DNA from: an uncultured Spirochaetales bacterium
GTDB taxonomy: Bacteria > Myxococcota_A > UBA9160 > SMWR01
Direction of reading: 5' to 3'
DNA: 54,329 bases
Assembly (NCBI GenBank): GCA_964413375.1
Contig: CAYPSI010000075.1
Span: 1-54,329, forward strand
Shown here in pieces: positions 10,253 through 53,441 of this stretch. A program made the translations under genes and the position numbers. Below the pieces are notes generated by a model. It was not told the origin of the DNA. It worked only from the letters and a program-made list of their open reading frames with translations, and searched no databases. Position 1 is the stretch's first letter, and the number at the start of each line of letters is the position of its first letter.

Positions 10253-10954
10253 GTGAGGCAGCACGGCGGGAACACGAGGGTCATCCTCGCCATCCACACG
10301 CTGCGCTTCCCGCTCGCGCTGGCGTTCGGCGTCATCGTGACCGCGTGTTTCTTCCTGCTGATGAAAGCGCTGATCAGCGTCAGGCCCGAGATGGTCGACG
10401 CCCAGGTCGTGCTCAATATCGAGTTCTCCCGGCTACGGACGGATTCGCAGATCGAGCCGCGGAAGCGCCCGAAGCCGGAACGCGTGACCCCCAAACAGGA
10501 ACCGCCCCCGCCCGGGATGGCCGTCGCGCAGACGCTCGATCCCCAGGGAGGCGTGAGCGAACTCGTCGCCGCCATGCAGCCCGGCGTCGGCTTCGGAGAA
10601 GTGACGAGTCTCGGCGGCGGCGGCGGCGGCGGGGGGGGTGGGGGCGGCGCTCGCGCGGACGGGAGCGGTGATCGCGACGTCCTCCCGCTGGTGCGGGTCG
10701 ATCCCGAGTACCCGGAGCGCGCCAAGCAGCAGCGCATCGAGGGATGGGTGGACGTCGAGTTCACGATCAGCCCGGCTGGGACGGTCAAGGATCCGCGTGT
10801 GATCGCGGCACAGCCCCCGTCCGTGTTCGACAAGTCGACGCTGAGCGCGATCCGCCGCTGGAGATACAACCCGAGGCTCGAGAATGGCGTCGCCGTGGAG
10901 CAGGTGGGTGTCCAGGTCCGCATGCGCTTCGAGCTGCCGCGGGGGGGCCGATGA
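10253..10954 (+). CDS. tonB: TonB family energy transducer
   Basis: N-terminal TM helix, Pro/Lys-rich linker (PRKRPKPERVTPKQEPPPP), C-terminal YPERAKQQRIEGWVDVEFTI...FDKSTLSAIRRWRY. Start uncertain. Confidence 0.88.
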   Translation: MRQHGGNTRVILAIHTLRFPLALAFGVIVTACFFLLMKALISVRPEMVDAQVVLNIEFSRLRTDSQIEPRKRPKPERVTPKQEPPPPGMAVAQTLDPQGGVSELVAAMQPGVGFGEVTSLGGGGGGGGGGGGARADGSGDRDVLPLVRVDPEYPERAKQQRIEGWVDVEFTISPAGTVKDPRVIAAQPPSVFDKSTLSAIRRWRYNPRLENGVAVEQVGVQVRMRFELPRGGR

Positions 10955-13742: not shown

Positions 13743-14678
13743 TCACCAGCCCCGGTTCGCGAGACGCTCGTGCTCGGCCAGCTTCTCCATCTCGATCCCG
13801 GGCATCGCAGCGGCGAGACCGCGGCAGGCCGCGAGCACCTCCTGCGGCTCGTCCCAGTGGGTGGTGGCGCGCACCACCGCGCGCGCCCGCGCCTCGGGAT
13901 CCTCGCTCTTGAAGATGCCCGAGCCGACGAAGACCGCCTCGGCGCCGAGCGCCATGCACAGCGCTGCGTCGGCGGGCGTTGCGATGCCGCCGGCCGCGAA
14001 GTTCGGCACCGGGAGGCGCCCCGTCGCGGCCACGCGGCGCACGAGCTCGAGCGGCGCTCCGAGCGCCTTTGCGCGCGCCGGGAGCTCTTCGGGCCGCAGT
14101 GCCCCGAGGCCGCGGATCTCTCCGCAGACCCGGCGCAGGTGCCGCACCGCCTCGACGATGTTCCCGCTCCCGGCCTCGCCCTTGGTGCGGATCATCGCCG
14201 CGCCTTCGGCCACGCGGCGGAGCGCCTCGCCGAGGTCGCGCGCACCGCACACGAAGGGCGAGCGGAACTCGTGCTTCGCGACGTGGTGCTCCTCGTCGGC
14301 AGGCGTCAGCACCTCGCTCTCGTCGATGAAGTCGACGCCGAGGGCCTCGAGGATGCGCGCCTCCGCGAAGTGGCCGATGCGGACCTTCGCCATCACCGGA
14401 ATCGACACCGTGCGCTGGATGCCCTGGATGATCTCGATGCTGGCCATGCGCGCGACGCCGCCCTCGCGGCGGATGTCGGCCGGCACGCGCTCGAGCGCCA
14501 TCACCGCCGCCGCACCGGCATCCTCGGCGATCTTCGCCTGCTCGGGCGTGGTCACGTCCATGATCACGCCGCCCTTCAGCATCTCGGCGAGGCCCACCTT
14601 GATCTCGAAGGCCTCGGCCCCCGTCCGGACGCCCCCATTGCCCGGCGCATCCGATCCCCGACTCTCCTTCCCCGACAT
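13743..14678 (-). CDS. pdxS: PLP synthase lyase subunit PdxS
   Basis: [61 protein letters not shown]. Confidence 0.97.
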
Positions 14679-21009: not shown

Positions 21010-21789
21010 TTGATCGCTCGCTGGCTGGCCTCGCTGGCGCTCCTCGCGCTCGTCGCAGCCTGCTCGAAGCCCCCGCCGAGCTTCGAGGAGGTCGAGCCGG
21101 CCGACGTGCTCTACCAGCGTGGGCTCGAAACCCTCGAGGGCGGCACCTGGCTCGGTGTGATTCCGCGCGTCGACTACGAAGACGCGATCAACACCTTCCA
21201 GTCGATCATCGACAACTACCCGTACAGCGAGTACGCGGTGCTCGCCGAGCTACGCATCGCGGACGCCTACTTCGACGACGCGAAGTACGAGGAGGCCCTG
21301 GCCTACTACCGGGACTTCGCCGACCTGCACCCGCAGCACGAGATGGTCCCCTACACGATCTACCGCGCCGCGTTGTGTCACGAGCGGAGGATGCGGAGCC
21401 CGAACCGGGACCAGACGCCGACTCGCGACGCCCTGCTCTTCCTCGATCGCCTGCTCGCGCACTACCCCTATTCGGAGTACGGCGCCGAGGCGGAAGTCCT
21501 GTGGCGCTCGCTGCGCACGCGCCTCGCGCAGCACGTGAAGGAGATCGCCGATTTCTACATCGCCCGCGATGAATGGGAGAGCGCCGCGGAGCGTTACCGA
21601 ACGATCCTGAACGAATACCCGGGGCTGGGCTTCGACGCGGAGGCCCTCTACCGGCTGGGCCTGTGCTATCTGCGCATGAACCGGGAGAGCGAGGCCGAGA
21701 GCATCTTCCAGGCCGTGGTCCAGAACTACCAGGACAGCGACCTCGCCCGCGACGCCGAGGACCGGATCGCGGCGATGCACGAAGGTTGA
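21010..21789 (+). CDS. bamD: Outer-membrane protein assembly lipoprotein BamD
   Basis: Lipobox LVAAC; DNYPYSEYAVLAELRIADAYF, FADLHPQHEMVPY, RDQTPTRDAL, SAAERYR. Confidence 0.93.
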   Translation: MIARWLASLALLALVAACSKPPPSFEEVEPADVLYQRGLETLEGGTWLGVIPRVDYEDAINTFQSIIDNYPYSEYAVLAELRIADAYFDDAKYEEALAYYRDFADLHPQHEMVPYTIYRAALCHERRMRSPNRDQTPTRDALLFLDRLLAHYPYSEYGAEAEVLWRSLRTRLAQHVKEIADFYIARDEWESAAERYRTILNEYPGLGFDAEALYRLGLCYLRMNRESEAESIFQAVVQNYQDSDLARDAEDRIAAMHEG

Positions 21790-28730: not shown

Positions 28731-29924
28731 CTAGAATTTCTGGATGATGTCGTCGTCCGGGCCGCGCTTCGCGGCGGGCTCGGGCTTCTGCTCGCCTGCC
28801 TCGGGCTCCGCATCGCCCTCGAAATCGTCCCAGGTGCCGTCCGAGGTGGATCCGATGCCACGGAAGCGCAGCGCGAAGTCGTCCGGGTTCGAGACGTGCT
28901 TGAGCGCCTCGTCGTAGGTGACGAGCTTCTGCTTCACGAGGCTCATCAGCGACTGGTCGAAGGTCTGCATCCCGTAGGTCGTGTAGCCCTTGGCGATCGC
29001 GTCGTGGATCTCCTTGGTGCGGTCCTTGTCGGCGATGCACTCGCGGATCCGCGCGGTGGAGACCAGCACCTCGAGAGCCGGGACCCGCCCCTTGCCGTCT
29101 GCCCGCGGCACGAGCCGCTGGGAGATCACGGACCTCAGAATCGAAGACAGCTGGAGCCGGATCTGCTTCTGCTGGTAGGGGGGGAAGACGGAGATGATGC
29201 GGTTGATCGTCTCGGTGGCGTCGAGCGTGTGCAGCGTGCTCATCACCAGGTGACCCGTCTCGGCCGCGGTGATCGCCGTCTCGATGGTCTCGAAGTCGCG
29301 CATCTCGCCGACGAGGATCACGTCGGGGTCCTGGCGCAGCGCCGAGCGCAATGCGGTGGAGAAGGTCTGCGTGTCGACGCCGATCTCGCGCTGGTTCACG
29401 ATCGAGCGCCGGTCACGGATCAGGAACTCGATCGGATCCTCGATCGTCATGATGTGGCAGGTGCGGTTCGCGTTGATGTATTCGATCATCGCTGCGAGCG
29501 TGGTCGACTTTCCCGAGCCCGTGGTCCCGGTGACGAGGACGAGCCCGCGCTGCTCCATCGCGATCGACTGGATCACCTTGGGCAGGTGCAGGTGCTCGAT
29601 CGACTTGACGCCGAAGGGGATCACCCGGAAGACGATGCCGACGGTGCCGCGCTGCTGGAAGGAGTTGACGCGGAAGCGGCCGAGGCCGGGGATCCCGTAG
29701 GCGAGGTCGACCTCGCGCGTCTCGTCGAAGCGCGCCTTCTGCACGGGGTTCATGATCGAATCGGCCATCGCCTGGATGTCATCGGGCATCAGGCGTTCGC
29801 CGTTCTTCAGCGGAACGAGCGCTCCGTCGACCCGGAACATCGGCGGAAGCCCCGACTTCAGGTGGATGTCGCTGGCCCCGCCCTTGAGCGCGATCTTGAG
29901 GATGTCGTTGAGCTCCAAACCCAC
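28731..29924 (-). CDS. pilT: PilT/PilU-family type IV pilus retraction ATPase
   Basis: ASDIHL, GRFRVN, Walker A GTTGSGKST, TIEDPIE, ALRQDPDVILVGEMRD, AETGHLVMSTLHT, GMQTFDQSL. Confidence 0.9.
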   Translation of the reverse strand: MGLELNDILKIALKGGASDIHLKSGLPPMFRVDGALVPLKNGERLMPDDIQAMADSIMNPVQKARFDETREVDLAYGIPGLGRFRVNSFQQRGTVGIVFRVIPFGVKSIEHLHLPKVIQSIAMEQRGLVLVTGTTGSGKSTTLAAMIEYINANRTCHIMTIEDPIEFLIRDRRSIVNQREIGVDTQTFSTALRSALRQDPDVILVGEMRDFETIETAITAAETGHLVMSTLHTLDATETINRIISVFPPYQQKQIRLQLSSILRSVISQRLVPRADGKGRVPALEVLVSTARIRECIADKDRTKEIHDAIAKGYTTYGMQTFDQSLMSLVKQKLVTYDEALKHVSNPDDFALRFRGIGSTSDGTWDDFEGDAEPEAGEQKPEPAAKRGPDDDIIQKF

Positions 29925-30074
29925 GTCCTCCCGCCGGATTTCGCACCGCCGCCCGGACTTCTTCGTCCGGCTCGGCAGCGCTCTTGAGGCGGCTTCCGGA
30001 ACCGGGCTGCGGGCTCAGGTCCGGCCCGCTGCCGGTCGATGAGCCCGGTACCGAACCCGATCCAGGGAGGGGAG

Positions 30075-31664
30075 ATGGCCCGGCGGACGCTCGCCTCGCT
30101 CGTTCTCGCCGCGCTGTGCGCGGCCAGCTCGGGCTGCCTCTTGCCAGTCCGCAGCGCGCCCGGCGTCGCAGGCCGGGTCGTGGAGGCCGGGTCCCGACGT
30201 CCGCTAGCCGGCGTTCTCGTAGTCGTCCGCTTCGACGGCCGCCACGGCACCCTGCTTCCGGACCGCGAGAACCTCGGCCATGCCGAGCTTCGCACCGACG
30301 CCGCTGGACGCTTCCAGTTCGCGCGGCACTTCGCGCCCGGAGTGGCGCTCTGGCCCTATTTCGAGGGCGAGGCCCGGGTCCTCTCGGTGCTGGCCGACGG
30401 CTACCGCTGCCCGAGCCCGCAGAAGGTTTCGCCGGGCGTTCCGATCGAGGTCGCGCTCGCGCCGGCCGCAGATCGCAGCGACCAGCGAGCGTCGTGCCGA
30501 CCGGTGGCCGCGCGTCCCGGCGAGGCGGCTGCCTACATGGCCGGCTGGCGCGCTCTCTTCGACGATCCGGACAGCGACCAGGCGCTCGAGGACCGGCGTC
30601 GCGTCGAGCAGGTCCTCGCCGCGCGCACTGCGCTCGGCTTCGCCGAGAACTGCGAGGGCCCGGTGTTCGACCTGGCGCTCTCGCCCGATGGCCGGATGGC
30701 CGCGATCGCGCAGCGCGAGAAGCAGCGCACTGCCGTCCACGTGGTGGATCTCGCGCCCGGCAGCGGCATCCGCGGCGTACGCGCGGGCGTGGCGGAGCGG
30801 ATGCCACCGCGGCGGCTCGCGTGGACCAGCCCACGCCAGCTCGTGGTCTGGTTGCCGGTCGCGACGCCGTTGCGCGCGGCAGCTACCGCTCGCGGTGCGG
30901 AGGGCCAGGTGGAGGTGCTTTGGAACGCTCCGGTGGAGCGCGTGAGCACCGCGCCGCAGAGAGCGTCCGCACGTCCTGTCGGGTCGAGCAGGCCACTCGA
31001 GCCCGAAGACATCTACGACGAGGGTGCGAATCGCTGGGCCGGGCGTAGCTTCACGCTCGTGCGCGGCGTCAATGCCTCGAGCGGCCTCGCGCGCGAGCAG
31101 CTTCGGATCGTCGCCCCGGATGGCGCGCGACACGAGATCGAGCTGCCCGGCGAGCCCTGCGGGCCGACCGGCCATTTCGGGCAGCCGCAGTACCGGATCG
31201 CCGCGGACGGGTCCCACGCACTCGACCTGCGCTTCGTTGGCGGGGCCTGCCGCGCCGTCTCGATCGACCTCGAATCCGGCTCGTGGAACGCGATCGACAC
31301 GGCCGGCGGCGCGCGGGCCGAGTGCCGCAACGAGCGCCGGATCCCGCCGAGCCACCTCCGCGTGGCGCTGCGCGGCTACCTCCGCCAGGCGGAGGGCTCG
31401 CTCGCAAGCGCCGGCGCCGACCCGACGCGCTCGTACCTGCTGCGCATCGAGCCCTCGGGCGCGGCCCAGGCGGAGACGCGCGACGCGAGCGGCCACACGC
31501 AGCACGTGGCGCTGGCGCCCTTCCCGGTTGCGACGCCGCTGCGCATCGTGCACGTCACGAACGTGGCGCCCGTGGACGGCCTGCAGCCGGCACCGAAGGC
31601 GGCCCCGAAGCCCGCGCCGTCCACGCCTTCGAGCGACGGCGAGCAGGGCCTCGAACCGCTGTAG
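30075..31664 (+). CDS. Hypothetical lipoprotein (carboxypeptidase-regulatory-like N-domain, possible beta-propeller segments)
   Basis: SD GGAGGGGAG; signal ending AASSGC; GRVVEAGSRRPLAGVLVVVRF; DLALSPDGRMAAIA. Function unknown. Confidence 0.65.
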   Translation: MARRTLASLVLAALCAASSGCLLPVRSAPGVAGRVVEAGSRRPLAGVLVVVRFDGRHGTLLPDRENLGHAELRTDAAGRFQFARHFAPGVALWPYFEGEARVLSVLADGYRCPSPQKVSPGVPIEVALAPAADRSDQRASCRPVAARPGEAAAYMAGWRALFDDPDSDQALEDRRRVEQVLAARTALGFAENCEGPVFDLALSPDGRMAAIAQREKQRTAVHVVDLAPGSGIRGVRAGVAERMPPRRLAWTSPRQLVVWLPVATPLRAAATARGAEGQVEVLWNAPVERVSTAPQRASARPVGSSRPLEPEDIYDEGANRWAGRSFTLVRGVNASSGLAREQLRIVAPDGARHEIELPGEPCGPTGHFGQPQYRIAADGSHALDLRFVGGACRAVSIDLESGSWNAIDTAGGARAECRNERRIPPSHLRVALRGYLRQAEGSLASAGADPTRSYLLRIEPSGAAQAETRDASGHTQHVALAPFPVATPLRIVHVTNVAPVDGLQPAPKAAPKPAPSTPSSDGEQGLEPL

Positions 31665-40522: not shown

Positions 40523-41503
40523 TCAGCGTGCGGAGGGCGGCTGCTGCTGGCCGAGGATCCAGCCTTCGATCTGCCGGATCTCGGGATCGGCGGGTTCGCC
40601 CGCGGGACGCTGGCCCAGCACGACGTCGAGCATTGCGAGGAGAGCCAGCGTGGCGTCGAAACGGTCTTCCCCGTCGGGTTTCGAGCCGAAGCCGTCGGCG
40701 AAGGCGGCCTGCAGCTCCGGCTCGAGCTCGACGCCGAGCCGAGTTGCGAACTCGAGTACACGCGGAAGCTGCGCGGCTCGCACCGCCTGCACGCGTTTTC
40801 CCCGCGCACCGCCTGCGGAGACCGCGGCTAGATCGAGGCCCAGATGCGCGTAGGCCTCGGCCGGATAAGTCTCCGCGACGACCGTGCGCCCTGGCGCGAG
40901 CAGCTCCGCGAGCGAACCCTCGAAGGGCCAGAGCGCGACGTCGAGGGCGCCGCGCAGCGCCGGGATCAGCGCGTCGCGCCAGCCGGAGATCGCGGCCTTT
41001 CCCACCTGCTGCGCACCGAGCGTCCAGAAGAGCGGGGCCGCTGCGCGGCGCAGCGGCGTCGCCCGTTCGCAGACCCGAAGCAGCTCGTCCATCGAGGCGA
41101 CGCCGAGGCCCGCTACGAGCTGGGCCTGCGAGCTAACACCCGGCCTCGCCGGGTAGAAGGGGCGCAGGATCGAGATCTCCTCGGGTCGTTCCGCCACCTC
41201 GAAGAAGGGGCCGGCGAGGCTCGGCAGCAGCGTGCGGAACGCGCGTACGCGGGCCTGGCGCGCGTAGGCGAGCGGAAGACCGATCGGGAAGTCGAAGCCC
41301 GCGAGGACGACGCCGCGGGGCCCGGCCTCGGCCGCGAGATCGGCCAGCAGCCGATCGGGTGCGGCCACCGGCGAAGGACCCTGCGCCCGCCAGCCGCGAC
41401 CCTGGCGCTTCGCGCGGGCGAGCCAGCGCTTGCCCGGAGTCGCGCCCCAGTCGGCGTGTGCGACGAGTGTCGGAGGCGTGGGGAGGGTGGACGTGGCACT
41501 CAC
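40523..41503 (-). CDS. DUF429-like predicted RNase H-fold nuclease
   Basis: VAHADWG, AGFDFPIGLP, FWTLGAQQVGKAA, VAETYPA, EDRFDA. Start GTG 41503. Confidence 0.7.
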   Translation of the reverse strand: MSATSTLPTPPTLVAHADWGATPGKRWLARAKRQGRGWRAQGPSPVAAPDRLLADLAAEAGPRGVVLAGFDFPIGLPLAYARQARVRAFRTLLPSLAGPFFEVAERPEEISILRPFYPARPGVSSQAQLVAGLGVASMDELLRVCERATPLRRAAAPLFWTLGAQQVGKAAISGWRDALIPALRGALDVALWPFEGSLAELLAPGRTVVAETYPAEAYAHLGLDLAAVSAGGARGKRVQAVRAAQLPRVLEFATRLGVELEPELQAAFADGFGSKPDGEDRFDATLALLAMLDVVLGQRPAGEPADPEIRQIEGWILGQQQPPSAR

Positions 41504-41561
41504 GGCAGCGCTGAGAATGCCACAAGCAGGCCCGCTTGGGCTTCGCCCGGCCGCGCGCCGG

Positions 41562-42599
41562 CTAGAGCAGGGACACCTCGCGCAGCAGCGCCAGGTTGTC
41601 GAGGGCGATGCCCGCGCCATGCACGACGGCGGTGAAGGGGTCCTCGCTGCGCAGGATCGGGAGCTTCGTCTCCTGACGCAGGACCTGGTCGAGCTCGCGC
41701 AGGAGCGAGCCGCCGCCCACCAGCATGATGCCGCGGTCGACGATGTCGGCCGCCAGCTCGGGAGGGGTCTTCTCGAGCGTCAGGTGCACCGTCTCGACGA
41801 TCGCATGGATCGGCTCGACGAGCGCCTCGCGGATCTCGTCGCTCGTGGCGACGACGACCTTCGGAATGCCCGCCACGAGGTCGCGGCCCTTGATCTCCAT
41901 CGTCTCGGTCTTCGCGGTCGGCGAAGCCGTTCCGATCGTCATCTTGATGTGCTCGGCCGTCCGTTCGCCGATCAACATGTTGTACTTGCGCTTGACGTAG
42001 TTGATGATGGCATCGTCCATCTTGTCGCCGCCGCAGCGGATCGACTTCGACGTCACGATACCCGAGAGCGAAATCACCGCGACGTCGGTCGTTCCGCCGC
42101 CGATGTCGACGACCATGTTGCCAGTGGCCGCAGTCACGTCGAGCCCGGCGCCGATCGCGGCGGCCATCGGCTCCTCGATCAGGAACACCTCACGGGCACC
42201 GGCCGACAGGGCCGACTCGCGCACCGCGCGCTTTTCGACGCTGGTGATGCACGGCGGAACGCAGATCACGACGCGGGGTCGCACGAGCTTGCCGCGGTTG
42301 TGCGCCCGCTGGATGAAGTAGCGCAGCATCGCCTCGGTGATCTCGAAGTCTGCGATCACGCCGTCCTTGATCGGACGGATCGCACGGATCCCGCTAGGCG
42401 TGCGCCCGAGCATCTCCTTGGCCTCGTGCCCGACGGCGAGGACCTTCTCGCCCCGCCCGTTCGGGTCCGCGATCACCGCGACCACCGATGGCTCCGAGCA
42501 GATGAGACCCTTGCCGCGCACGTAGACCAGCGTGTTGGCCGTGCCGAGGTCGATGGCCAGATCGTGCGAGAACATTCCTGCAATGGCGTCGAACAGCAT
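41562..42599 (-). CDS. mreB: Rod shape-determining protein MreB
   Basis: DLAIDLGTANT, RPIKDGVIADF, LIEEPMAAAIGAG, VDIGGGTTD, GGGSLL. Confidence 0.97.
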   Translation of the reverse strand: MLFDAIAGMFSHDLAIDLGTANTLVYVRGKGLICSEPSVVAVIADPNGRGEKVLAVGHEAKEMLGRTPSGIRAIRPIKDGVIADFEITEAMLRYFIQRAHNRGKLVRPRVVICVPPCITSVEKRAVRESALSAGAREVFLIEEPMAAAIGAGLDVTAATGNMVVDIGGGTTDVAVISLSGIVTSKSIRCGGDKMDDAIINYVKRKYNMLIGERTAEHIKMTIGTASPTAKTETMEIKGRDLVAGIPKVVVATSDEIREALVEPIHAIVETVHLTLEKTPPELAADIVDRGIMLVGGGSLLRELDQVLRQETKLPILRSEDPFTAVVHGAGIALDNLALLREVSLL

Positions 42600-42743
42600 C
42601 GCCCTTGCGCCCCTCCCACCGCGCGCCGTCGCGGCCTGTGGGCTGCTGTATCGGCGAATGAGCGGCAGGAGTTGAGCGGACGCTGCGTCGCGTGAAGGCT
42701 TCTCGCGGGCCAGAGGGCCGAGGGGCCAATCGGGTCGACCGAC

Positions 42744-42852
42744 GCGCAGCGAAGCGCTGCCGAGCCGAGGTCAGCGACAGGCAAGCGAAGCGCGCAGCGA
42801 GGCGAAGCCGAGCGGAGTGGGCTGCCCTCGACCGGTTCGAGCCCTCGTCCTA
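42744..42852 (-). repeat. Mini-hairpin repeat, full copy plus a degenerate partial copy
   Basis: Reverse complement TAGGACGAGGGCTCGAACCGGTCGAGGGCAGCCCACTCCGCTCGGCTTCGCCTCGCTGCGCGCTTCGCTTGC starts on the pafA TAG; extra GCGCAGCGAAGC at 42744-42755. Confidence 0.88.
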
Positions 42853-44256
42853 AGACTGGATCACGAGCTTCGAGAGGCTCGTCTTGCGCAGGTTGGTCTT
42901 CTGGATCGTCCGCACCAGCTCGGCGACCTTCTCGATGTCCGTCTCGAACGGATTGTTGCAGATCACGCGGACGTTGAGCAGGTTGCCGAGCCGGATGTTC
43001 GACCAGTCGAGGTCGTACTGGATCGAGTTCTGGCGGGCGAGCTTGATGAACTCGCCGCGCATGCGCGCGCGGGTGTCCGGCGGCGGCTCGGTCTTGGCCT
43101 TGATGATCTCTTCATCCTCGAGCACCCGCTCCACGCGGCCGTTCTTCTCGAGCAGGTAGTAGAGGCCCCGGTTCATGCGGATGTCGTGGTACTGGAGGTC
43201 GAGCATGAAGACGCGGGGGTCGTTCCACGTCGTGTTGCGCGAGTCGACATAGGACTGGATCATCCGGCGCTTGATCAACCAGTCGACTTCGCGGTCGAGC
43301 TTGTCGGGATCCGTGTCGAGGCAGTCGAGGACGTGCTGCCACATCGTCACCGCCTGGCGCACCTGGTCCGAGACCGGATACTGCTCGATGTACTTCTGGG
43401 CCATCTCGCAGTACTCGCGCTGGATGTTGATCGGCGAGTACTCGCGCCCGTTGTCGAGCCGGAGCTTGCGCTTGCAGGTGACGTCGTAGGAGATGTCCTT
43501 GATCGCCTTCACCGGGTTGCGCAGCGTGAAGTCCTGGTTGATGTAGTTGTCCTCGATCATCTGGAGGACGACGGCGCAGGTCCCGATCTTCAGGAAGTTC
43601 GTGTAGTCGGACATGTTGGAGTCGCCGACGATCACGTGCAGCCGTCGGTACTTCTCCCGGTCCGCGTGGGGCTCATCGCGCGTGTTGATGATCGACCGGT
43701 CGTTCGTCGTAGTGCCGGAGATCTTCTGGTAGATGTGCTGCGCGCGCTGGCTGATGCAGTAGTGGATCCCATCCTGCGTCTGGAAGACCTTCCCGGCTCC
43801 GGTGTAGATCTGTCGGGTCACGAGGAAGGGGATCAGCTGCTCGGCCAGGTAGTAGAAATCGACGTCGCGGTCCACGAGGTAGTTCTCGTGGCAACCGTAG
43901 GAGTTTCCGACGAAATCGGTGTTGTTCTTGAAGATCGAGAGCTTCCCGGTGATGCGCTCCTCGCGGATCTTCTCCTCCGCATAGAGCTGGAGGTCCTCGA
44001 GGATCCGCTCGCCCGCCCTGTCGTAGAGAACGACCTGGCGGGGCGAGGCGCATTCGGGCGTCGCGTACTCGGGGTGGCAGCCGGTGTCCTGATAGAAGCG
44101 GGCGCCGTTCTCCAGGAAGACGTTCAGGAAGTGCTCGGTGGTGATCAGCTTCTCGAACAAGAAGCGGATCGCCTTCTCGACGGGGAGCGTCTTCCGCCCT
44201 TCGGGCGTGAAGATGATCCCATACTCCGTCTCGATACCGTAGATCCGCTTCTGCAC
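42850..44256 (-). CDS. pafA: Pup--protein ligase PafA
   Basis: RIYGIETEYG, FLENGARFYQDTGCHPEYATPEC, GNSYGCHENY, RSIINTRDEPHAD, RRLHVIVGDSNMS, DLQYHDI, PPPDTRA. Confidence 0.93.
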   Translation of the reverse strand: MQKRIYGIETEYGIIFTPEGRKTLPVEKAIRFLFEKLITTEHFLNVFLENGARFYQDTGCHPEYATPECASPRQVVLYDRAGERILEDLQLYAEEKIREERITGKLSIFKNNTDFVGNSYGCHENYLVDRDVDFYYLAEQLIPFLVTRQIYTGAGKVFQTQDGIHYCISQRAQHIYQKISGTTTNDRSIINTRDEPHADREKYRRLHVIVGDSNMSDYTNFLKIGTCAVVLQMIEDNYINQDFTLRNPVKAIKDISYDVTCKRKLRLDNGREYSPINIQREYCEMAQKYIEQYPVSDQVRQAVTMWQHVLDCLDTDPDKLDREVDWLIKRRMIQSYVDSRNTTWNDPRVFMLDLQYHDIRMNRGLYYLLEKNGRVERVLEDEEIIKAKTEPPPDTRARMRGEFIKLARQNSIQYDLDWSNIRLGNLLNVRVICNNPFETDIEKVAELVRTIQKTNLRKTSLSKLVIQS

Positions 44257-44284
44257 GCTCGCCGCCCGACCGGCTATCTGTCCC

Positions 44285-44983
44285 CTAAGTCCCCAGGTGC
44301 TCCCGAAGTGTATCGGTGTCCAGACGCCGGAACTTTCGCCCCACGCGATGGCGCTCGAGCAGGCAGACCTCGAGGTTGTCGGCCGTCACGTTCGGCTCCC
44401 TGTCCGCGGCCCGCTGCAAGGCCCGGTAGCCGAGGAGCAGGGCCTCCCTGAGGGGAAGGCCGTCCCGGAACTCGGATCGCAACAGACTCCCGAGCTCCTC
44501 CGCGGCACCCCCGATCACGCAGAACCCTTCGTAGTCGCTGATGCTGCCGTCGAACTGCACGCGGTAGATGGCGTTGTTTTCGTGCCCGGCCAGGGTGTCG
44601 TCCCCCACCTCGGCCACGATCACCTCCACCTCGAGCGGCTTGAGCTCCCGGGTAAACACCTCACCCATGGCTTGAGAATAGGCGTTCGCCAGCCCCTTCG
44701 CTCGCACGTCGTCCCGGCTGTAGGCGTAGCCGCGTGTGTCGGCGTAGCGCACGCCGAGCTTCCGCAGCTGATCGAACTCGCTGAACTTGCCGACGCCGGC
44801 GAAGGCGATCCGGTCGTAGATCTCCCCGATCTTGGAGAGCGAGGAGGGATTCTCCGCCATCAGCAGGACACCCTCGTCGTACTGGAGTGTGACGCTGGAC
44901 TTGCCGCGGGCGATGCCCTTGCGGGCAAACTCCGCCTTGTCCTGCATCACCTGTTCGGGGGAGACGTAGAAGGGCATCGTCAT
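44285..44983 (-). CDS. prcA: 20S proteasome alpha subunit (actinobacterial type)
   Basis: MPFYVSPEQVMQDKAEFARKGIARGKS, KIGEIYDRIAFAGVGKFSEF, KPLEVEVIVAEVG, RKFRR; ATGA overlap with prcB. Confidence 0.95.
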   Translation of the reverse strand: MTMPFYVSPEQVMQDKAEFARKGIARGKSSVTLQYDEGVLLMAENPSSLSKIGEIYDRIAFAGVGKFSEFDQLRKLGVRYADTRGYAYSRDDVRAKGLANAYSQAMGEVFTRELKPLEVEVIVAEVGDDTLAGHENNAIYRVQFDGSISDYEGFCVIGGAAEELGSLLRSEFRDGLPLREALLLGYRALQRAADREPNVTADNLEVCLLERHRVGRKFRRLDTDTLREHLGT

Positions 44984-45795
44984 CGGCGTCCTCCCCGCGC
45001 CGGAACCCGGCGGCGCGCTCCGAGGATCTCCCGATAGATCCGGTCCATCTCCTCGTCTCCCGCCCGTTCGATTCCGCCTTCCGAACAGAAGTACACGAGC
45101 GGGTAGATTCCCCGCTCGAGATCGACCCCGCCCGTGGCGCGGTCCTCGTCGGAGGCATCGGCGAGTGCCTGGAGCGCGGCGCGCAGGCCTCCGTCGCGCG
45201 ACGCAGAGGCGTCGTAGGACTTCTTGAGCGACTCCCGGGCATAGAGCCCCCCGGAGCCGGTGGCCTCGTACTCGGTCTCTTCGTAGCGTCCGCCGGTCAC
45301 GTCGAACTTCCACAGGCGTCCCTGTCGCCGGCGAAGGTCGTAGCCGGCGAAGAGCGGCACCACCACGAGGCCCTGCATCGCGGCGGGGAGGTTCGCGCGC
45401 ACCATCTGCGAGAGCCGGTTGGCCTTGCCGTCGAGCTCGAGTCGATCGCCTTCGATCTTTTCGTAGTGCTCGAGCTCGATCCGCATCAACCGCGCCATCT
45501 CGAGCGCCGGCCCGGCCGCGCCGGCAATGGCGATCAGCGAGTAATCGTCCGTGGCGAGCACCTTCTCGAGATCGCGGGACGCGACGCGGTGCCCCTCCGT
45601 CGCGAGGCGGTCACCCGCGACGATGACTCCGTCGGCGTACTTGAACGCCAGCACGGTGGTACCGTGCGGTACCTGCTCGAGGTCGAGCCCCGGCGCGGAG
45701 AGCCGGCTCCAGTCCGGTACGAGCTGTGTGTGATCGACTGCCAGGAGCTCGTTGAAGCTCGAGCCCTGGTACTTGCCGCCGAAGCTGATCGGCAA
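44980..45795 (-). CDS. prcB: 20S proteasome beta subunit with propeptide
   Basis: SSFNELL...PHG/TTVLAFKYADGVIVAGDRLAT, IAGAAG, ELEHYEKIEG, ATGSGG; TTG 45795 with a purine-rich SD. Confidence 0.95.
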   Translation of the reverse strand: MPISFGGKYQGSSFNELLAVDHTQLVPDWSRLSAPGLDLEQVPHGTTVLAFKYADGVIVAGDRLATEGHRVASRDLEKVLATDDYSLIAIAGAAGPALEMARLMRIELEHYEKIEGDRLELDGKANRLSQMVRANLPAAMQGLVVVPLFAGYDLRRRQGRLWKFDVTGGRYEETEYEATGSGGLYARESLKKSYDASASRDGGLRAALQALADASDEDRATGGVDLERGIYPLVYFCSEGGIERAGDEEMDRIYREILGARRRVPARGGRR

Positions 45796-45930
45796 CGCCC
45801 CCCCCTTCTTTCGGGTCTCGGCGGGGGCCCGCACCCTGCCCGGCTTCGCCGCGCTGCTGGGCCGCTGCTCAGCCCTTGCGGTCGGCCCGCCCCCTCCGTC
45901 CGGCCCGACCGTAGCAGCCCTACGCTGTGC

Positions 45931-46200
45931 CTACTGGCCGCCCCGCTGAACGTAGTTCTTGACGAACTCCTCGGCGTTCTCCTCGAGGACCTCGTCGATC
46001 TCGTCCACCAGGGCGTCCATCTCCTCCTTCAGCTCCTTGCCCTTCTTGGCGAGCTTCTGGGATCCGGAGGCATCCTTGTCCTCGCCTTCTCCGCCGCCCC
46101 GCTTGGGCGTCTTCTTCTGGGTCGACTCGGCCGCGCCGTAGATCGGGAAGGCATCTCCCGCCACCTCGCGCTTCGGGCTCGTCGTCCTGAACATTCTCAT
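45931..46200 (-). CDS. pup: Prokaryotic ubiquitin-like protein Pup (C-terminal GGQ)
   Basis: ...KRGGGEGED...EMDALVDEIDEVLEENAEEFVKNYVQRGGQ-stop; lies between dop and prcB. Start ambiguous (46200, 46194 or GTG at EVAG). Confidence 0.95.
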   Translation of the reverse strand: MRMFRTTSPKREVAGDAFPIYGAAESTQKKTPKRGGGEGEDKDASGSQKLAKKGKELKEEMDALVDEIDEVLEENAEEFVKNYVQRGGQ

Positions 46201-46222
46201 GGCGCCCCCGCGTCGCGCGCCG

Positions 46223-47707
46223 CTAGGCGCGCAGGTTCCTCACCAGATCCGCCGCCGTCGGAGACTGGTTCAAGAGCTCCTCCACGTGCACCCGCGAGCC
46301 CTTGAGAGGCTCGGCCATCAGGATCCGCCTGATGGGCTCCTCATCGACGCTGAAGGAGATCGAATCCCAGTTCACGCCGAACACGGCCGAGCCGTAGCGC
46401 CGCAGACACTCACCCCGGAAATAGGCCCGTGTGTCCTCCGGCGGCTTGCCGATCGCGAGGGCGATCTCCGCATCCGTGACGATCCGCTCGGCCCTGCCCT
46501 GCCGTTCGAGCATGTAGTATAGGCCCTTGTCGGGCCGGAGGTCGTGGTACTGGAGGTCCAGCATCTGGACCTGCGGGGCGTCCCACGAGAGCGACTTCCG
46601 CTGCATGAAGCTCTCGATCATCGCCTTCTTCATCACCCAGTCGACCTGACGCTCGAGCTCCATCGGATCGCGGCGCAGGGACTCGATGGCACTCTGCCAT
46701 TTGACGAGCACGTCCTCCGTCTCCGCCGACAGCTCGCGGCCAGCGCAGTAGGCCAGAGCCATCTCGAGGTACTCCGCCTGGATCTCGACGGCGCTGAGCC
46801 GCTTGCCGTTCTCGAGGTGGAGCGCACGCCGGCAATCCGGGTCGTGGGACACCTCCTTGATGGCGGCCACGGGATCGCGAAGCGCCAGGTTCTTCCGGAT
46901 GGCGCCGTCCTCGATCATCGAGAGGACGAGGGCCGTGACGCCCGTGCGCAGGTAGATCGTGTACTCCGAGAGGTTCGCGTCGCCCACGATCACGTGAAGA
47001 CGCCGGTACTTCTCCCGGTCTGCGTGCGGCTCGTCGCGCGTATTGATGATCGGGCGCTTCACCATCGTGTCGAGCGCCACCTCGGTTTCGAAGAAATCAG
47101 CGCGCTGCGAGATCTGGAAATCACAGGGGTGAGCGCGGTTCTCGCTACCCACCTTGCCCGCGCCGCAGTAGACCTGGCGCGTCACGAAAAAGGGCATCAG
47201 ATGTTCGACGATCTGCTTGAAGGAGGTCCGGCGGTCCATGAGAAAATTCTCGTGGGCGCCGTAGCTATTGCCCTTCCGATCGCTGTTGTTCTTGTAGAGC
47301 AGCATCTCGGCGCCGGCGGGCAGCAGGCTCGAGGCCTCGCGCCGGCTGGCCTCGAGAATTCGCTCGCCCGCCTTTTCATGGATCACGAGTTCACGCGCGT
47401 TCGTGACCTCCGGACAGGAATACTCCGGGTGCGCGTGGTCCACATAGTAGCGCGCGCCGTTGACGAGAGTTTTGTTGCGGGCGATGTTCTCCTGCTGGTT
47501 CGGGGTGTACTTCTCCCCGTCGACCTGGAAGCCCCGCGCGTCGGCCAGCGGATTCTCCTGATCGTAGTCCCACAAGATCTCGCCGTAGTGCTCCTCCCGG
47601 TAACAGTTGACGAGGAGGACGCAGCTCGAGATCGGGTCGAAGTCGGGATCCCCCTTGACGGTGATCCCGTACTCGATCTCCGAGCCCATCACCTTCGGAA
47701 TGGCCAT
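46223..47707 (-). CDS. dop: Pup deamidase/depupylase Dop
   Basis: KVMGSEIEYG, Dop loop WDYDQENPLADARGF, NGARYYVDHAHPEYSCPE, NNSDRKGNSYGAHEN, RPIINTRDEPHAD, PPEDTRAYFRG. Confidence 0.94.
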   Translation of the reverse strand: MAIPKVMGSEIEYGITVKGDPDFDPISSCVLLVNCYREEHYGEILWDYDQENPLADARGFQVDGEKYTPNQQENIARNKTLVNGARYYVDHAHPEYSCPEVTNARELVIHEKAGERILEASRREASSLLPAGAEMLLYKNNSDRKGNSYGAHENFLMDRRTSFKQIVEHLMPFFVTRQVYCGAGKVGSENRAHPCDFQISQRADFFETEVALDTMVKRPIINTRDEPHADREKYRRLHVIVGDANLSEYTIYLRTGVTALVLSMIEDGAIRKNLALRDPVAAIKEVSHDPDCRRALHLENGKRLSAVEIQAEYLEMALAYCAGRELSAETEDVLVKWQSAIESLRRDPMELERQVDWVMKKAMIESFMQRKSLSWDAPQVQMLDLQYHDLRPDKGLYYMLERQGRAERIVTDAEIALAIGKPPEDTRAYFRGECLRRYGSAVFGVNWDSISFSVDEEPIRRILMAEPLKGSRVHVEELLNQSPTAADLVRNLRA

Positions 47708-47734
47708 GCATTCTCCCGCGCCATGCGCGCGCGC

Positions 47735-49576
47735 CTAGAGATACTGGCCCGAGGTGATGTTTTCAATCGATCGCTCCTTGCGGCTGATCCCCGTCATCAG
47801 CGTGCGCACGTTGATGATGCGCTCGCCCTTTCGGCCGGAGATGCGGGCCCAGTCGTCCGGGTTGGTGGTGTTCGGGAGATCCTCGTTCTCCTTGAACTCG
47901 TCGTTCACGGCCTCGAGGAGATCGTCGAACTGGATACCCCGCTCGCCGTGGCTGATCGTCCGCTTCACGGCCTTCTTCTTGGCGCGCGCGACGATGTTCT
48001 GGATCATCGCGCCGCTCGAGAAGTCCTTGAAGTAGAAGATCTCGCGCTCGCCCTTCGCGTAGGTCACCTCGAGGAACTTGTTCTCCTCGCTGGCGGCGTA
48101 CATGCGGGTGATCGTCTCCTCGATCATGCCTGACGCGATCTTCGCCGTGTCTTCCCCGTAGCGCTGAGCCGCCGTGGCGTGGAAGGGCAGATCCGAGGTC
48201 AGGTACTTCGCGAAGATCTCCTTGGCGGCCTTCGCGTCGGGCCGATTCACCTTGATCTTCAGATCCAGGCGCCCGGGCCGCAGCACGGCGGGGTCGATCA
48301 GGTCCTGGCGATTGCTGGCGCCGATCACGATCACGTTCTTGAGCGACTCGACGCCGTCGATCTCGGACAGGAACTGGGCGACGACCGTTGCCTCCATGTC
48401 CGACGAGATCCCCGATCCGCGCATGCGGAAGAGTGAATCCATCTCGTCGAAGAAGATCACGACCGGGACGTCCTCGCTCGCCTTGTCGCGTGCCTTCTTG
48501 AAGACCTCTCGAAGCTTGTGCTCGGTCTCCCCGACGTACTTGTTCAGGAGTTCGGGGCCCTTCACGTTCAGGAAGTAGGGCGTCGTCCTCCGGCCGGTGC
48601 GCTGCTCGATGCTGCGCGCGAGGCTGTTGGCCACCGCCTTGGCGATCAGCGTCTTCCCGCAGCCCGGAGGGCCGTAGAGCAGGATGCCCTTCGGCGGCGA
48701 GAGCTTGTGCTCGGCGAAGACCTCCGGGTACATGTAGGGCAGCTCGACCGAGTCCCGCAGGATCTCGATCTGCTCGCCGAGCCCGCCGATGTTGTCGTAG
48801 GTCGTGTCGGGGATCTCCTCGAGCACCACCTCCTCGACCGCGGACTTCGGCAGCTTCTCGAAGGCGTAGTGCGTGCGCGGATCGTAGAGCACGTTGTCGC
48901 CGACCTTGAGCTTCTCGCGGCGCAGCGGCTCAGCCAGCGTCACGACGCGCTCGTCGTCCGTGTGGCCGAGCACGATGGCCCGATTGTCCGCGAGCAGATC
49001 GACGATCGAGACGACCTCACCGCGTGCGGTGAAGCCGGCCGGCTCCACCACGTTCATCGCCTCGTTGAGCACCACGAGCTGCCCTTCCTCGAGCGTGAAG
49101 GGGTCGAGGTTCGGGTGCACGTTCACGCGCATCGCGCGGCCGTCGACGAGGATCTCCGCGGTGCCGTCCTTGTTGGGCCGGTTGAAGATCCCGTAGGTAT
49201 TGGGAGGCGCGCAGAGCTTGTCGACCTCCTCCTTCAGGACCTCGATCTGCTGCTTCGCTTCCTGGAGGACGGCCACGAGGCGCTCGTTCTGGCGCTCCGA
49301 GTCCGCAGCCTGCTCGCGGGTGCTCTGGTAGCGGCGGCGAAGCGCGTCGAACTCGGCGATCAGCCGATCGAGCCGCCGGCGGAACTCCTCCGAATCGCTG
49401 CCGAAGACGCGGATCGCGTCCTGCAGGTCTTCGACCTCGTCCTGATGCGGCCGAGCCGGGCCGCGATCGCGGCCCGCATCGTTGGGATCTCCCGCGCGCG
49501 GGGCCGCCGCGGAGATCCGACGCATCACGTCGTGTACGAAGCCCTTCTTGGTCGATCCGGAATCCGCTTCGCTCAT
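47735..49576 (-). CDS. arc: Proteasome ATPase ARC/Mpa
   Basis: Coiled coil ...LKEEVDKLCAPPNTYG; OB domains; GPPGCGKT; VKGPELLNKYVGETE; FFDEMDS; SNRQDLIDPAVLRPGRLD; C-terminal GQYL. Confidence 0.96.
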   Translation of the reverse strand: MSEADSGSTKKGFVHDVMRRISAAAPRAGDPNDAGRDRGPARPHQDEVEDLQDAIRVFGSDSEEFRRRLDRLIAEFDALRRRYQSTREQAADSERQNERLVAVLQEAKQQIEVLKEEVDKLCAPPNTYGIFNRPNKDGTAEILVDGRAMRVNVHPNLDPFTLEEGQLVVLNEAMNVVEPAGFTARGEVVSIVDLLADNRAIVLGHTDDERVVTLAEPLRREKLKVGDNVLYDPRTHYAFEKLPKSAVEEVVLEEIPDTTYDNIGGLGEQIEILRDSVELPYMYPEVFAEHKLSPPKGILLYGPPGCGKTLIAKAVANSLARSIEQRTGRRTTPYFLNVKGPELLNKYVGETEHKLREVFKKARDKASEDVPVVIFFDEMDSLFRMRGSGISSDMEATVVAQFLSEIDGVESLKNVIVIGASNRQDLIDPAVLRPGRLDLKIKVNRPDAKAAKEIFAKYLTSDLPFHATAAQRYGEDTAKIASGMIEETITRMYAASEENKFLEVTYAKGEREIFYFKDFSSGAMIQNIVARAKKKAVKRTISHGERGIQFDDLLEAVNDEFKENEDLPNTTNPDDWARISGRKGERIINVRTLMTGISRKERSIENITSGQYL

Positions 49577-49922
49577 TCCGTCGCCTCCTCGTTCACGCGC
49601 ATTCCCATCGCAGGGGCTGCGGTCATGAACGAGTCCTGCAAGGCGCGTGCCGCCCTTCCTCCAATGCCCAGCTCCCCCGGCGTGCCGGCCTCCTGCGCGT
49701 TGCCGAGGGTTTTCGCGCGCTCCCCATCACCGCAGTGTGCAGCCGAAACGGAGCGCGCGCACCCGCGCGCGAACCGGAGGTCCCGGCCCGCGCGTCCGTG
49801 CGCCACGAGATCCATCATCGAAGCTCCCGTGCGCGGTCCGAAAGACAACGCAGACTCGCCATTCGAGCTTCAGAACCGGCGCCGCCGCGCCTTGTCGGGA
49901 GGGTGAAAAAGGCGCCGAACAC

Positions 49923-49946
49923 CGCGAAAAGTTTATTCTTTTCGCG
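49923..49946. promoter_or_regulatory. Perfect 9-bp inverted repeat at the predicted arc transcription start
   Basis: CGCGAAAAG-tttatt-CTTTTCGCG, AT-rich against a GC-rich background. Confidence 0.6.
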
Positions 49947-49953
49947 ATTTTGG

Positions 49954-49981
49954 AAGATATCAGACGACCCCCGACTGTCAA
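49954..49981 (-). promoter_or_regulatory. Strong sigma70-type promoter of the Pup-proteasome operon
   Basis: TTGACA(49981-49976)-N16-TATCTT(49959-49954), with extended -10 TG (TGaTATCTT). Confidence 0.72.
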
Positions 49982-50304
49982 CCAGCCGGACGACACGCCG
50001 CCTCCCCGGGTGAGCGGTGCGCACGCGGCATCGCGTCTCGCCCCGCGAGGCGGCTGTCTCGAGGCCGTCGGACCCGAGGATCTGGGGTTGCGTGCGGGCT
50101 TTGCCCCAGAGCTTCCGGTGGCCTGCCGGCGAGGTGCCGCCGCGTGATGCGATGCTGCATCCCAGTTGCCGCCTTCTTGACGCCAGCGTCGGAGATCCCA
50201 CGGTCTGGCCGCTTCACGCGCGCCCCGCCGAACTTTGCGGCACTCGGGGGGCGCGGCATCAGAGTTCCCCGTTAGAGGAAGTCCGGTCGCCGACCCCACC
50301 CCGC

Positions 50305-51020
50305 TCACCGGGTGCCCGTAGCCGCGTCGAGGTCGAGCACCCGGACGCCCGGCGGGGGCTCGAAGCGGAAGAGCGACGCATCGGGGTCGCGATTCACCCG
50401 CAGGTCGCGCAGCGCGACCGTCGTGGCGTTGCCGAGCAGATCGATCACGGTGGTCTCGAGCAGCTCTCCCGAGCGCGGATCGATGCGGGCCTCGAGCCGC
50501 TCGTAGGTGGCAGCCTGGCGGGGCACGAGGTCGAGCCGTGCCGAGGCCTCTCCGCACTCGAGCGCCTTCACCTCGAAGTCTCGCAGGATCTCGCCTTCTC
50601 CGAGCAGGAAGGAGAGCGCCGCGCCGGAAAGGTAGGCCTCGGTCACGGTCAGACGCTGCGCCTCGCGGTTCGCGGCATCGTAGATCCACAGCTCTTTGCC
50701 GTCGCAGACGACGAGGCTCGGCTCGGGCTCCAGGTAGGTCCAGCGCATCCGGCCGGGCTTCGCGAAGACGACGCTGCCGCGAGACTTCGAGGTCGCACCG
50801 GGCTGCCCGAGCGCCACCGAGCGCGTCGACTGCTCGAAGCTGGCCTCGAGGTCGCGCACGGCCTCGTAGCGGCGCTGGAGGGCCTTTGCAGCGCGATCGG
50901 CGCAGTCGAGCCCCGCCTGTACAGGCGGGGCTGCGGCCGCCAGGGGCGCAACGGCAAGGCTCACGAGTGCGAGGACGCAGGCCCACACGTGGCGTTGGAC
51001 GCGGACCGGGCGCGCGAGCT

Positions 51021-51024
<4 letters not shown>
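50305..51024 (-). CDS. lolA: Outer-membrane lipoprotein carrier LolA
   Basis: Signal peptide; DLEASFEQ, GSVVFAKPGRMRWTY, LVVCDGKELWIYD, FRFEPPPGVRV; GTGA overlap with the ftsK stop. Confidence 0.92.

Positions 51025-53441
<2,417 letters not shown>

Follow-up and report, generated by a model that had tools for sequence, protein, structure and literature searches.

The window analyzed here, a 54,329-nt stretch of DNA to which all coordinates refer, carries the six genes of a Pup-proteasome system (PPS; Pup is the prokaryotic ubiquitin-like protein) as intact, co-oriented open reading frames (ORFs) at 42850–49576. In order of transcription on the minus strand, where all genes lie unless stated otherwise, they are arc/mpa, dop, pup, prcB, prcA, and pafA. 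With gaps of 22–96 nt and an ATGA overlap of prcB with prcA, the cassette forms a tight operon. Families were called by Pfam and NCBIfam profile searches (NCBIfam cutoffs are given in parentheses); all six proteins were assigned unambiguously, and profile coverage is near full-length for each. A previous sequence-only reading of this DNA had described a complete system in canonical order, with intact diagnostic motifs (the GQYL tail of ARC, the HG/TT processing site of PrcB, the PafA and Dop motifs, and the GGQ end of Pup), in an outer-membrane-bearing, Myxococcota-like host. All six ORFs and all of these motifs are present, and the family models and the flanking genes for BamD, LolA, and TonB agree with that description.

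The first gene, arc/mpa (47735–49576), encodes a proteasomal AAA+ ATPase of 613 amino acids (aa) that matches TIGR03689 with 737.5 bits (cutoff 504.75) over positions 5–511 of the 512-position profile. The protein has an N-terminal coiled coil, two OB domains, an AAA module, and a C-terminal GQYL, and it matches PF17758, PF16450, and PF00004. Motifs read in the sequence are Walker A GPPGCGKT, Walker B FFDEMD, and the pore loop KYVG. Aligned to Mpa of Mycobacterium tuberculosis (7PX9; 648 bits), it matches across the coiled-coil, OB, and AAA regions to the last residue of GQYL (...SGQYL). The start of arc is confirmed by a conserved Shine-Dalgarno sequence, GGAGA, plus ATGAGCGA in relatives. 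Next, dop (46223–47707) encodes a Pup deamidase/depupylase of 494 aa (TIGR03688, 582.2 bits, cutoff 492.3; PF03136, 577.7 bits). Its alignment to Acidothermus Dop (4B0R; 541.7 bits) covers residues 5–492 and includes the Dop-loop region and the catalytic-Asp motif YYVDHAHPEY.

The modifier gene pup (45931–46200) encodes 89 aa and matches PF05639 with 73.5 bits and TIGR03687 with 56.8 bits (cutoff 41.45); at E ≤ 10, these Pup models are the only hits of the protein in the profile libraries. Its C-terminus is ...YVQRGGQ. At the other end is an N-terminal extension of ∼24 aa (46135–46200) that begins right after the dop stop codon and is common to six relatives (L001, L002, L005, L006, L007, and L012). 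Such extensions are ∼20–30 aa long in the window and its closest relatives and are poorly conserved, and Pup of another relative, L013, has none and begins directly at MADTTQKQ.

The 20S core is encoded by prcB and prcA. The beta subunit gene prcB (44980–45834; 284 aa; the GTG start at 45834 is a mechanical call) matches TIGR03690 with 298 bits (cutoff 191.9), whereas the HslV model scores only 24 bits. PrcB has a 58-aa propeptide and the processing site PHG/TTVLAF, which makes residue 59 (codon 45660–45658) Thr1. The mature chains of Rhodococcus (1Q5Q_H) and M. tuberculosis (2FHG_H) likewise begin at the position of residue 59, Asp17 and Lys33 (mature numbering) are present at the right spacing, and the match to the Rhodococcus beta subunit 2H6J scores 233.9 bits. 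The alpha subunit gene prcA (44285–44983; 232 aa) matches TIGR03691 with 292.4 bits (cutoff 139.05) and, as the trimmed protein, PF00227. The mechanical ORF of 342 aa was rejected as over-extended; the family match begins at its residue 111, which places the real start at the ATG at 44983.

The last gene, pafA (42850–44256), encodes a Pup ligase of 468 aa (PF03136, 510.3 bits). Its best model is TIGR03686, at 550.4 bits (cutoff 551.3) over positions 1–455 of 457, and the Dop model TIGR03688 gives 416.4 bits. PafA aligns end to end and with no insertion to Corynebacterium glutamicum PafA (4B0T; 355 bits), and its Asp57 aligns to the catalytic Asp64 of that protein (the residue that is Asn in the mutant 4BJR). 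Alignment of PafA to Dop starts only at PafA residue 43, and the N-terminus of PafA is ∼37 residues shorter than that of Dop; we therefore consider PafA to be without the Dop loop.

The organization of the locus is conserved across a large clade. A scan with PafA of one genome per GTDB species recovered at least 561 stretches with a relative, and the best 80 (L001–L080) encode PafA proteins 84–94% identical to that of the window. Nearly all of the 80 are metagenome-assembled genomes (MAGs) labeled Myxococcota, Myxococcales, or Deltaproteobacteria, and three are closed chromosomes; the MAGs come from marine, soil, sediment, and wastewater sources. By tblastn of the window proteins, the order ftsK-lolA-arc-dop-pup-prcB-prcA-pafA-mreB recurs in every one of the 80 with a long enough contig, including the closed chromosomes OZ245002, OZ245817, and OZ252299, and 61 loci contain both lolA and arc. 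The GQYL tail of ARC is kept in 60 of 65 relatives and the HG/TT site in nearly all PrcB proteins. The C-terminus of Pup is GGE in 47 relatives and GGQ in 25, and Dop is retained with either.

The operon is under strong purifying selection. Ratios of nonsynonymous to synonymous substitution rates (dN/dS) between the window and eight close relatives are rough, because dS is near saturation; they are 0.05–0.12 for pafA, 0.07–0.19 for dop, 0.09–0.21 for arc, 0.11–0.24 for prcA and prcB, and 0.13–0.41 for pup. Values for flanking genes are 0.07–0.18 (mreB), 0.18–0.37 (ftsK), and 0.27–0.61 (lolA), so that pafA, arc, dop, prcA, and prcB are comparable to or below mreB and ftsK. No protein of the neighborhood is more conserved than PafA, whose median identity over 80 species is 88.8% versus 85.1% for MreB; medians are 75% for ARC, 76% for Dop, 67% for PrcA, and 64% for PrcB.

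A predicted sigma-54 (−24/−12) promoter, GGCACGCGCCTTGCA, lies 61–75 nt upstream of the arc ATG (49637–49651, minus strand), followed downstream by the conserved ribosome-binding site GGAGA and start ATGAGCGAGTTCGA. It has the defining −24 GG and −12 GC elements at exact spacing on the coding strand (TGGCAC-N5-TTGCW) and is the sole match, on either strand of the window, to GGCAYN5TTGCW and to the strict consensus that we searched, GGCA[CT]-N5-TTGC[ATC]. The window and 52 of 61 related loci each have the motif once upstream of arc, at −64 to −180 and mostly at −71 to −82, with no matches on the opposite strand of the related spacers; shuffled sequences lead to an expectation of 0.3 loci. Across 1.38 Mb of related loci, sites upstream of arc account for 52 of all 60 strict matches. 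We infer sigma-54 dependence from this pattern, and the operon is apparently switched on by this promoter. The sigma factor gene rpoN and enhancer-binding proteins (EBPs) are effectively lacking in Actinomycetota, whereas Myxococcota are EBP-rich (PMC12316311). Because Actinomycetota are effectively without sigma-54, control of this kind cannot exist for their PPS, and in the clade studied here it would represent a host-specific rewiring.

Several observations weigh against sigma-54 control. The strict motif is missing in nine of the 61 related loci, mainly those of the most divergent subclade. The window holds neither rpoN nor an activator gene, and it has no EBP gene; in the 80 relatives, EBP genes are likewise absent up to 10 kb from the locus. 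No activator site was recognized upstream. In addition, one motif match in the window alone carries a chance expectation of ∼15%, and for this reason the case rests on conservation across genomes.

In an alternative, unlikely in our judgment, GGCAC-N5-TTGCA is a conserved binding site or an element of the 5' untranslated region and the operon is transcribed only from a distal sigma-70-like promoter. A candidate for the latter was found by a promoter scan at 49954–49981 (minus strand; TTGACA-16-TATCTT with TG). Relatives have a near-consensus counterpart, TTGACA-N17-TAGACT-like (TTGACA-N17-TAnnnT) and often with an extended −10 TG, 240–760 nt upstream of the sigma-54 promoter. After this promoter comes a conserved block of ∼45 nt, which reaches ∼49905 in the window (CGAAA..AAAA..ATTTCGAGRGGTTCGRCGTTT); promoter and block are both present in 56–58 of 62 loci. 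The absence of a nearby EBP gene or obvious activator site would also fit, and sigma-54-like strings are known to arise by chance in high-GC genomes (PMC12316311). Against this explanation stand features shared by the window and 52 of 61 loci, namely the exact spacing of the −24 GG and −12 GC elements, their restriction to a single strand, and their constrained distance to the start codon, as well as the large share of all strict matches that this one element supplies. We therefore retain the sigma-54 promoter as the preferred reading, under which the operon should need an enhancer-binding activator encoded elsewhere.

Enzymatic activity and physiological role are predicted from homology to the mycobacterial system. 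Transcription would start from the predicted sigma-54 promoter, with the distal sigma-70-like promoter, also conserved, as a second. Dop would deamidate the C-terminal Gln of Pup (GGQ) to Glu, and PafA would phosphorylate the gamma-carboxylate of Pup with ATP and then ligate Pup to lysines of substrates. A hexamer of ARC/Mpa would catch Pup via its N-terminal coiled coils and unfold the substrate through its pore. With its GQYL tail docked on the PrcA ring, ARC would feed the substrate into the PrcAB 20S core, where Thr1 of autoprocessed PrcB would cleave it. Dop would also strip Pup from substrates, making tagging reversible. The sequence-only reading had allowed for inactive proteins, and nothing in the sequences suggests inactivity.

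Degradation may nonetheless not be the main output. In a rather improbable alternative, the genes are intact and serve mainly for reversible regulatory tagging, or the 20S core works largely independently of Pup. The far higher conservation of PafA relative to PrcA and PrcB (median identities given above) could be read in this way. Some pupylating actinobacteria are without a proteasome. Likewise, the Pup ligase of Plesiocystis has no linked proteasome (PMC2588565). What speaks for degradation is that ARC keeps its Pup-binding coiled-coil region and, in most relatives, its GQYL tail, that PrcB keeps Thr1, Asp17, and Lys33, and that the six genes remain in one operon under purifying selection.

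The sequence-only reading held the system to be of actinobacterial type and probably acquired as a cassette. Recent horizontal gain of a compact cassette from an actinobacterium is very improbable, although parts of the evidence could be taken to favor it: the genes are arranged as in Actinobacteria (PMC8223512), reviews treat proteasome genes as horizontally acquired, and the total GC content of the cassette (0.63–0.64) is below that of its flanks (0.70–0.72). The drop in GC content, however, is wholly confined to codon positions 1 and 2; at third positions (GC3), the six genes (0.86–0.95) are like their neighbors (0.83–0.95). All related species-level genomes whose contigs are long enough have the cassette at this same site, identities of cassette proteins track those of flanking genes, and the sigma-54 promoter is of the host type.

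Similarities among proteins also point away from a recent actinobacterial donor. A search of 1.84 billion cluster representatives recovered 6415 representatives of the PafA/Dop superfamily at E ≤ 0.001. The representative of the cluster of the window PafA is 61% identical to it and the next full-length representatives are at most 48% identical. The window PafA is 65% identical to that of L082 (GCA_900174565.1), 64% to that of L081 (GCA_037446715.1), and 62% to that of Candidatus Moduliflexus flocculans (GAK54162.1), all at diderm loci. Identities are lower to Ilumatobacteraceae (48%) and Dermatophilus (40–41%) of Actinomycetota, Candidatus Tectomicrobia (43–45%), and Nitrospinota (38%). The window Dop is 61% identical to Dop of Candidatus Entotheonellia. 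In a neighbor-joining tree, the diderm PafA and Dop proteins each group apart from labeled actinobacterial sequences. That the tree is midpoint-rooted and mostly unlabeled, and leaves deep relationships unsettled, counts against reading much into it, and we accordingly grade a separate diderm branch of the PPS as likely only.

An assembly chimera or binning contamination that joined an actinobacterial fragment to a Myxococcota contig can be dismissed as next to impossible: the window is presumably of metagenome origin and its PafA has no exact entry in the gene-position index, but dozens of independent assemblies, produced by many projects and including three closed chromosomes, show the same junction on either side, and codon-position composition is uniform. 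On synteny and GC3, we reject both the chimera, a junction that the sequence-only reading had asked to be looked for at either edge and that did not appear, and the recent transfer. Conserved position across the clade, host-like GC3, low dN/dS, and PafA and Dop proteins closest to those of other diderms indicate an ancient, vertically maintained locus of diderm type, and the claim of recent acquisition as a cassette is not supported. For the same reasons, any transfer, in whichever direction, would be ancient.

We consider it quite probable that the six genes form a functional canonical PPS, encoded in one operon and vertically inherited as part of the core genome of an uncultured diderm lineage. 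Two points weigh against this: PafA scores 0.9 bit under the NCBIfam equivalog cutoff, and the hosts are all MAGs, with the system known here from sequence alone. A broader proposal, which we advance tentatively and stop just short of favoring, is that the PPS is an ancestral and near-universal core trait of a class-level diderm lineage (Myxococcota_A/UBA9160). Its proteins would form a diderm branch with those of Moduliflexus, an Entotheonellia-like Dop cluster, L081, and L082, a branch that would be the sister group of the actinobacterial systems instead of descending from them. The operon would be wired into a sigma-54/EBP network such that degradation is activated by a signal, not constitutive or linked to PafBC.

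The rest of the window is ordinary diderm core genome. The genes named by the sequence-only reading have Pfam matches: BamD (21010–21789; PF13525), LolA (50305–50952; PF03548), TonB (10253–10954; PF03544), and, for pilT, a PilT-like ATPase (28731–29924; PF00437). FtsK is encoded at 51021–53441 and MreB at 41562–42599, 250 bp past pafA. Other core genes in the window encode RecA, AlaS, IspG, RecQ, SSB, PdxST, ribosomal protein L25, and Pth, and there is one tRNA. The pafBC and tatAC neighbors, which are usual at actinobacterial loci but do not define a PPS, had been described as absent and are indeed missing: none of the window ORFs scanned is pafBC-like (WYL/HTH) or a tatAC/Tat gene. Two ORFs with high GC3, one of 365 aa between recQ and mreB (40523–41620, minus strand) and one of 541 aa (30039–31664, plus strand), are without Pfam matches at E ≤ 0.01. 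The 250-bp spacer between pafA and mreB (42600–42849) has GC-rich repeats of the CTTCGC type that match several places in other loci (L012, L029, and others). In relatives, mreB starts 1.6–4.4 kb after the start of pafA, with up to ∼3 kb of extra DNA between the genes in some.

The host lineage is most likely class UBA9160 of the GTDB phylum Myxococcota_A, a placement that goes by placeholder names and is the weaker for it. The related genome UBA6930 (L071) falls in the clade, and a 2026 preprint on Myxococcota MAGs assigns family UBA6930 to class UBA9160 ('Vahlivitia') of Myxococcota_A, from which we infer the class of the host. Twelve syntenic MAGs (L014, L020, L021, L025, L028, L030, L031, L048, L049, L058, L069, and L075) are labeled Spirochaetales, Spirochaetaceae, Gammaproteobacteria, or Geobacter. 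These labels are probably artefacts of taxonomy mapping, because one MAG labeled Spirochaetaceae is named HK-STAS-MYXO-51.

The spacer between lolA and arc is 728 bp long and has three non-coding elements that are conserved across the clade. One, an element of ∼75 nt at ∼50115–50216 (minus strand), was delimited by blastn conservation and a consensus over ∼35 loci. It is just downstream of lolA, ∼130–190 nt upstream of the distal promoter, and includes a short hairpin, GACGN..CGTC, with some compensatory variants, an AAAA, and two weaker sigma-54-like GG-N10-GC motifs, CGGCAA-N5-nTGCA and GCGGCACC-N4-nGGCA. For the distal leader, RNAalifold gave no pairs of a conserved RNA fold, and ViennaRNA z-scores of its first 50 nt average −0.15. 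A dyad, CTCGAAA...TTTCGAG, is unconvincing as an RNA structure, with 60.7% paired cells versus 58.3% in shuffled sequences. Just downstream of the distal −10, at ∼49922–49945 (minus strand), is a perfect 9-bp inverted repeat, CGCGAAAAG-N6-CTTTTCGCG. It was rejected as a conserved element: the palindrome is specific to the window, and a relaxed form, GAAAA-N5-12-TTTTC, is in only 5 of 61 loci. We also rejected a conserved small ORF in the spacer, where tblastx similarity spans multiple frames and reflects conservation at the DNA level only. At E ≤ 1, Rfam models have no match in 49500–50400; over the window as a whole, a single tRNA is the sole Rfam hit.

In reviews and recent papers, the full PPS is assigned to Actinobacteria, or to Actinobacteria plus Nitrospirota. 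In the literature that we searched, no report of a Pup-linked 20S proteasome in Myxococcota, Myxococcota_A, or Deltaproteobacteria was found, so that the host phylum is not credited there with the system; the preprint on Myxococcota MAGs in which class UBA9160 is defined is also silent on a PPS. The rarity implied by the sequence-only reading is nevertheless not borne out, given the many species-representative genomes with a PafA relative. Public MAG records already annotate the proteins as Pup--protein ligase or PafA2 family protein, and Pup conjugation in deltaproteobacteria, without a proteasome, was noted in 2008 (PMC2588565). The proteins are canonical, and both the occurrence of Pup systems outside Actinobacteria (since 2008) and the annotation of these genes in MAGs are already known. 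Noteworthy are the conserved core-genome status of the PPS in a large diderm lineage and, as a new point, its predicted sigma-54 control. The locus is a real but incremental extension of a system that textbooks place in Actinobacteria. No new biochemical mechanism is revealed. The locus instead represents a stable, housekeeping-like full PPS in a large and globally distributed diderm lineage. It offers a wider comparative base for the origin of pupylation and its direction of movement between phyla, and, for reconstitution, compact operons of six genes from Gram-negative hosts. A concrete, testable question also arises, namely which signal and activator turn on proteasomal degradation.

Among known systems outside Actinobacteria, PPS loci of Nitrospirota have been cited (PMC12053664). 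In Plesiocystis pacifica and Rhodopirellula, Pup-ligase loci have no linked proteasome, and four transmembrane segments are inserted in their ligases (Iyer, Burroughs & Aravind 2008, PMC2588565). Shared with the Plesiocystis type is that a deltaproteobacterial (myxobacterial) genome encodes Pup conjugation; the window differs in that arc, prcA, and prcB are in the operon and PafA is without the four-segment insertion. In 2017, Lehmann et al. reportedly described UBact, a Pup-like modifier encoded beside homologs of Mpa, Dop, PafA, and the proteasome, in the same order, in Gram-negative phyla. The modifier of the window has the canonical ...YVQRGGQ end and, among the profiles searched, matches only the Pup models PF05639 and TIGR03687.

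The PPS of M. tuberculosis (Rv2115c-Rv2097c) has the same six components in the same order, mpa, dop, pup, prcB, prcA, and pafA. Shared with actinobacterial systems in general are the GQYL of ARC, Thr1, Asp17, and Lys33 of PrcB, the catalytic Asp of PafA and Dop, the GGQ of Pup, and the equivalog models. Unlike those systems, the operon of the window is one contiguous run of ∼6.7 kb, uninterrupted by other genes, and its pafA has no pafBC as a neighbor. Its host is a diderm, its PafA is only 40–48% identical to labeled actinomycetotal PafA, and it has a predicted sigma-54 promoter and an N-terminal extension of Pup.

The closest sequences are those of the other diderm loci (Moduliflexus, the Entotheonellia-like Dop cluster, L081, and L082), with identities of 62–65% for PafA, 61–62% for Dop, and 62–65% for ARC. 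These loci are not alike in every respect. Loci L081–L083 are of low GC content (40–47%) and have sigma-70-like, not sigma-54, motifs upstream of arc, and L082 differs from the window in having a third Pup_ligase paralog nearby. This paralog, also present in L083, encodes 455 aa at 14639–16006 of L082, 3 kb from the operon and among Fe-S/redox genes, and in the neighbor-joining tree it branches near the diderm PafA group. In L081, lolA and arc are separated by the insertion of a MiaB-like gene, a DksA/TraR-like gene, and a small ORF. Nevertheless, L081 and L082 have the same six-gene order, and the last 23 residues of their Pup are identical to those of the window. Despite a GC content of 40% compared with 70% in the window, L081 also shares the wider ftsK-lolA ... 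yceG-ruvX ... cinA-ligT-recA-pilT neighborhood.

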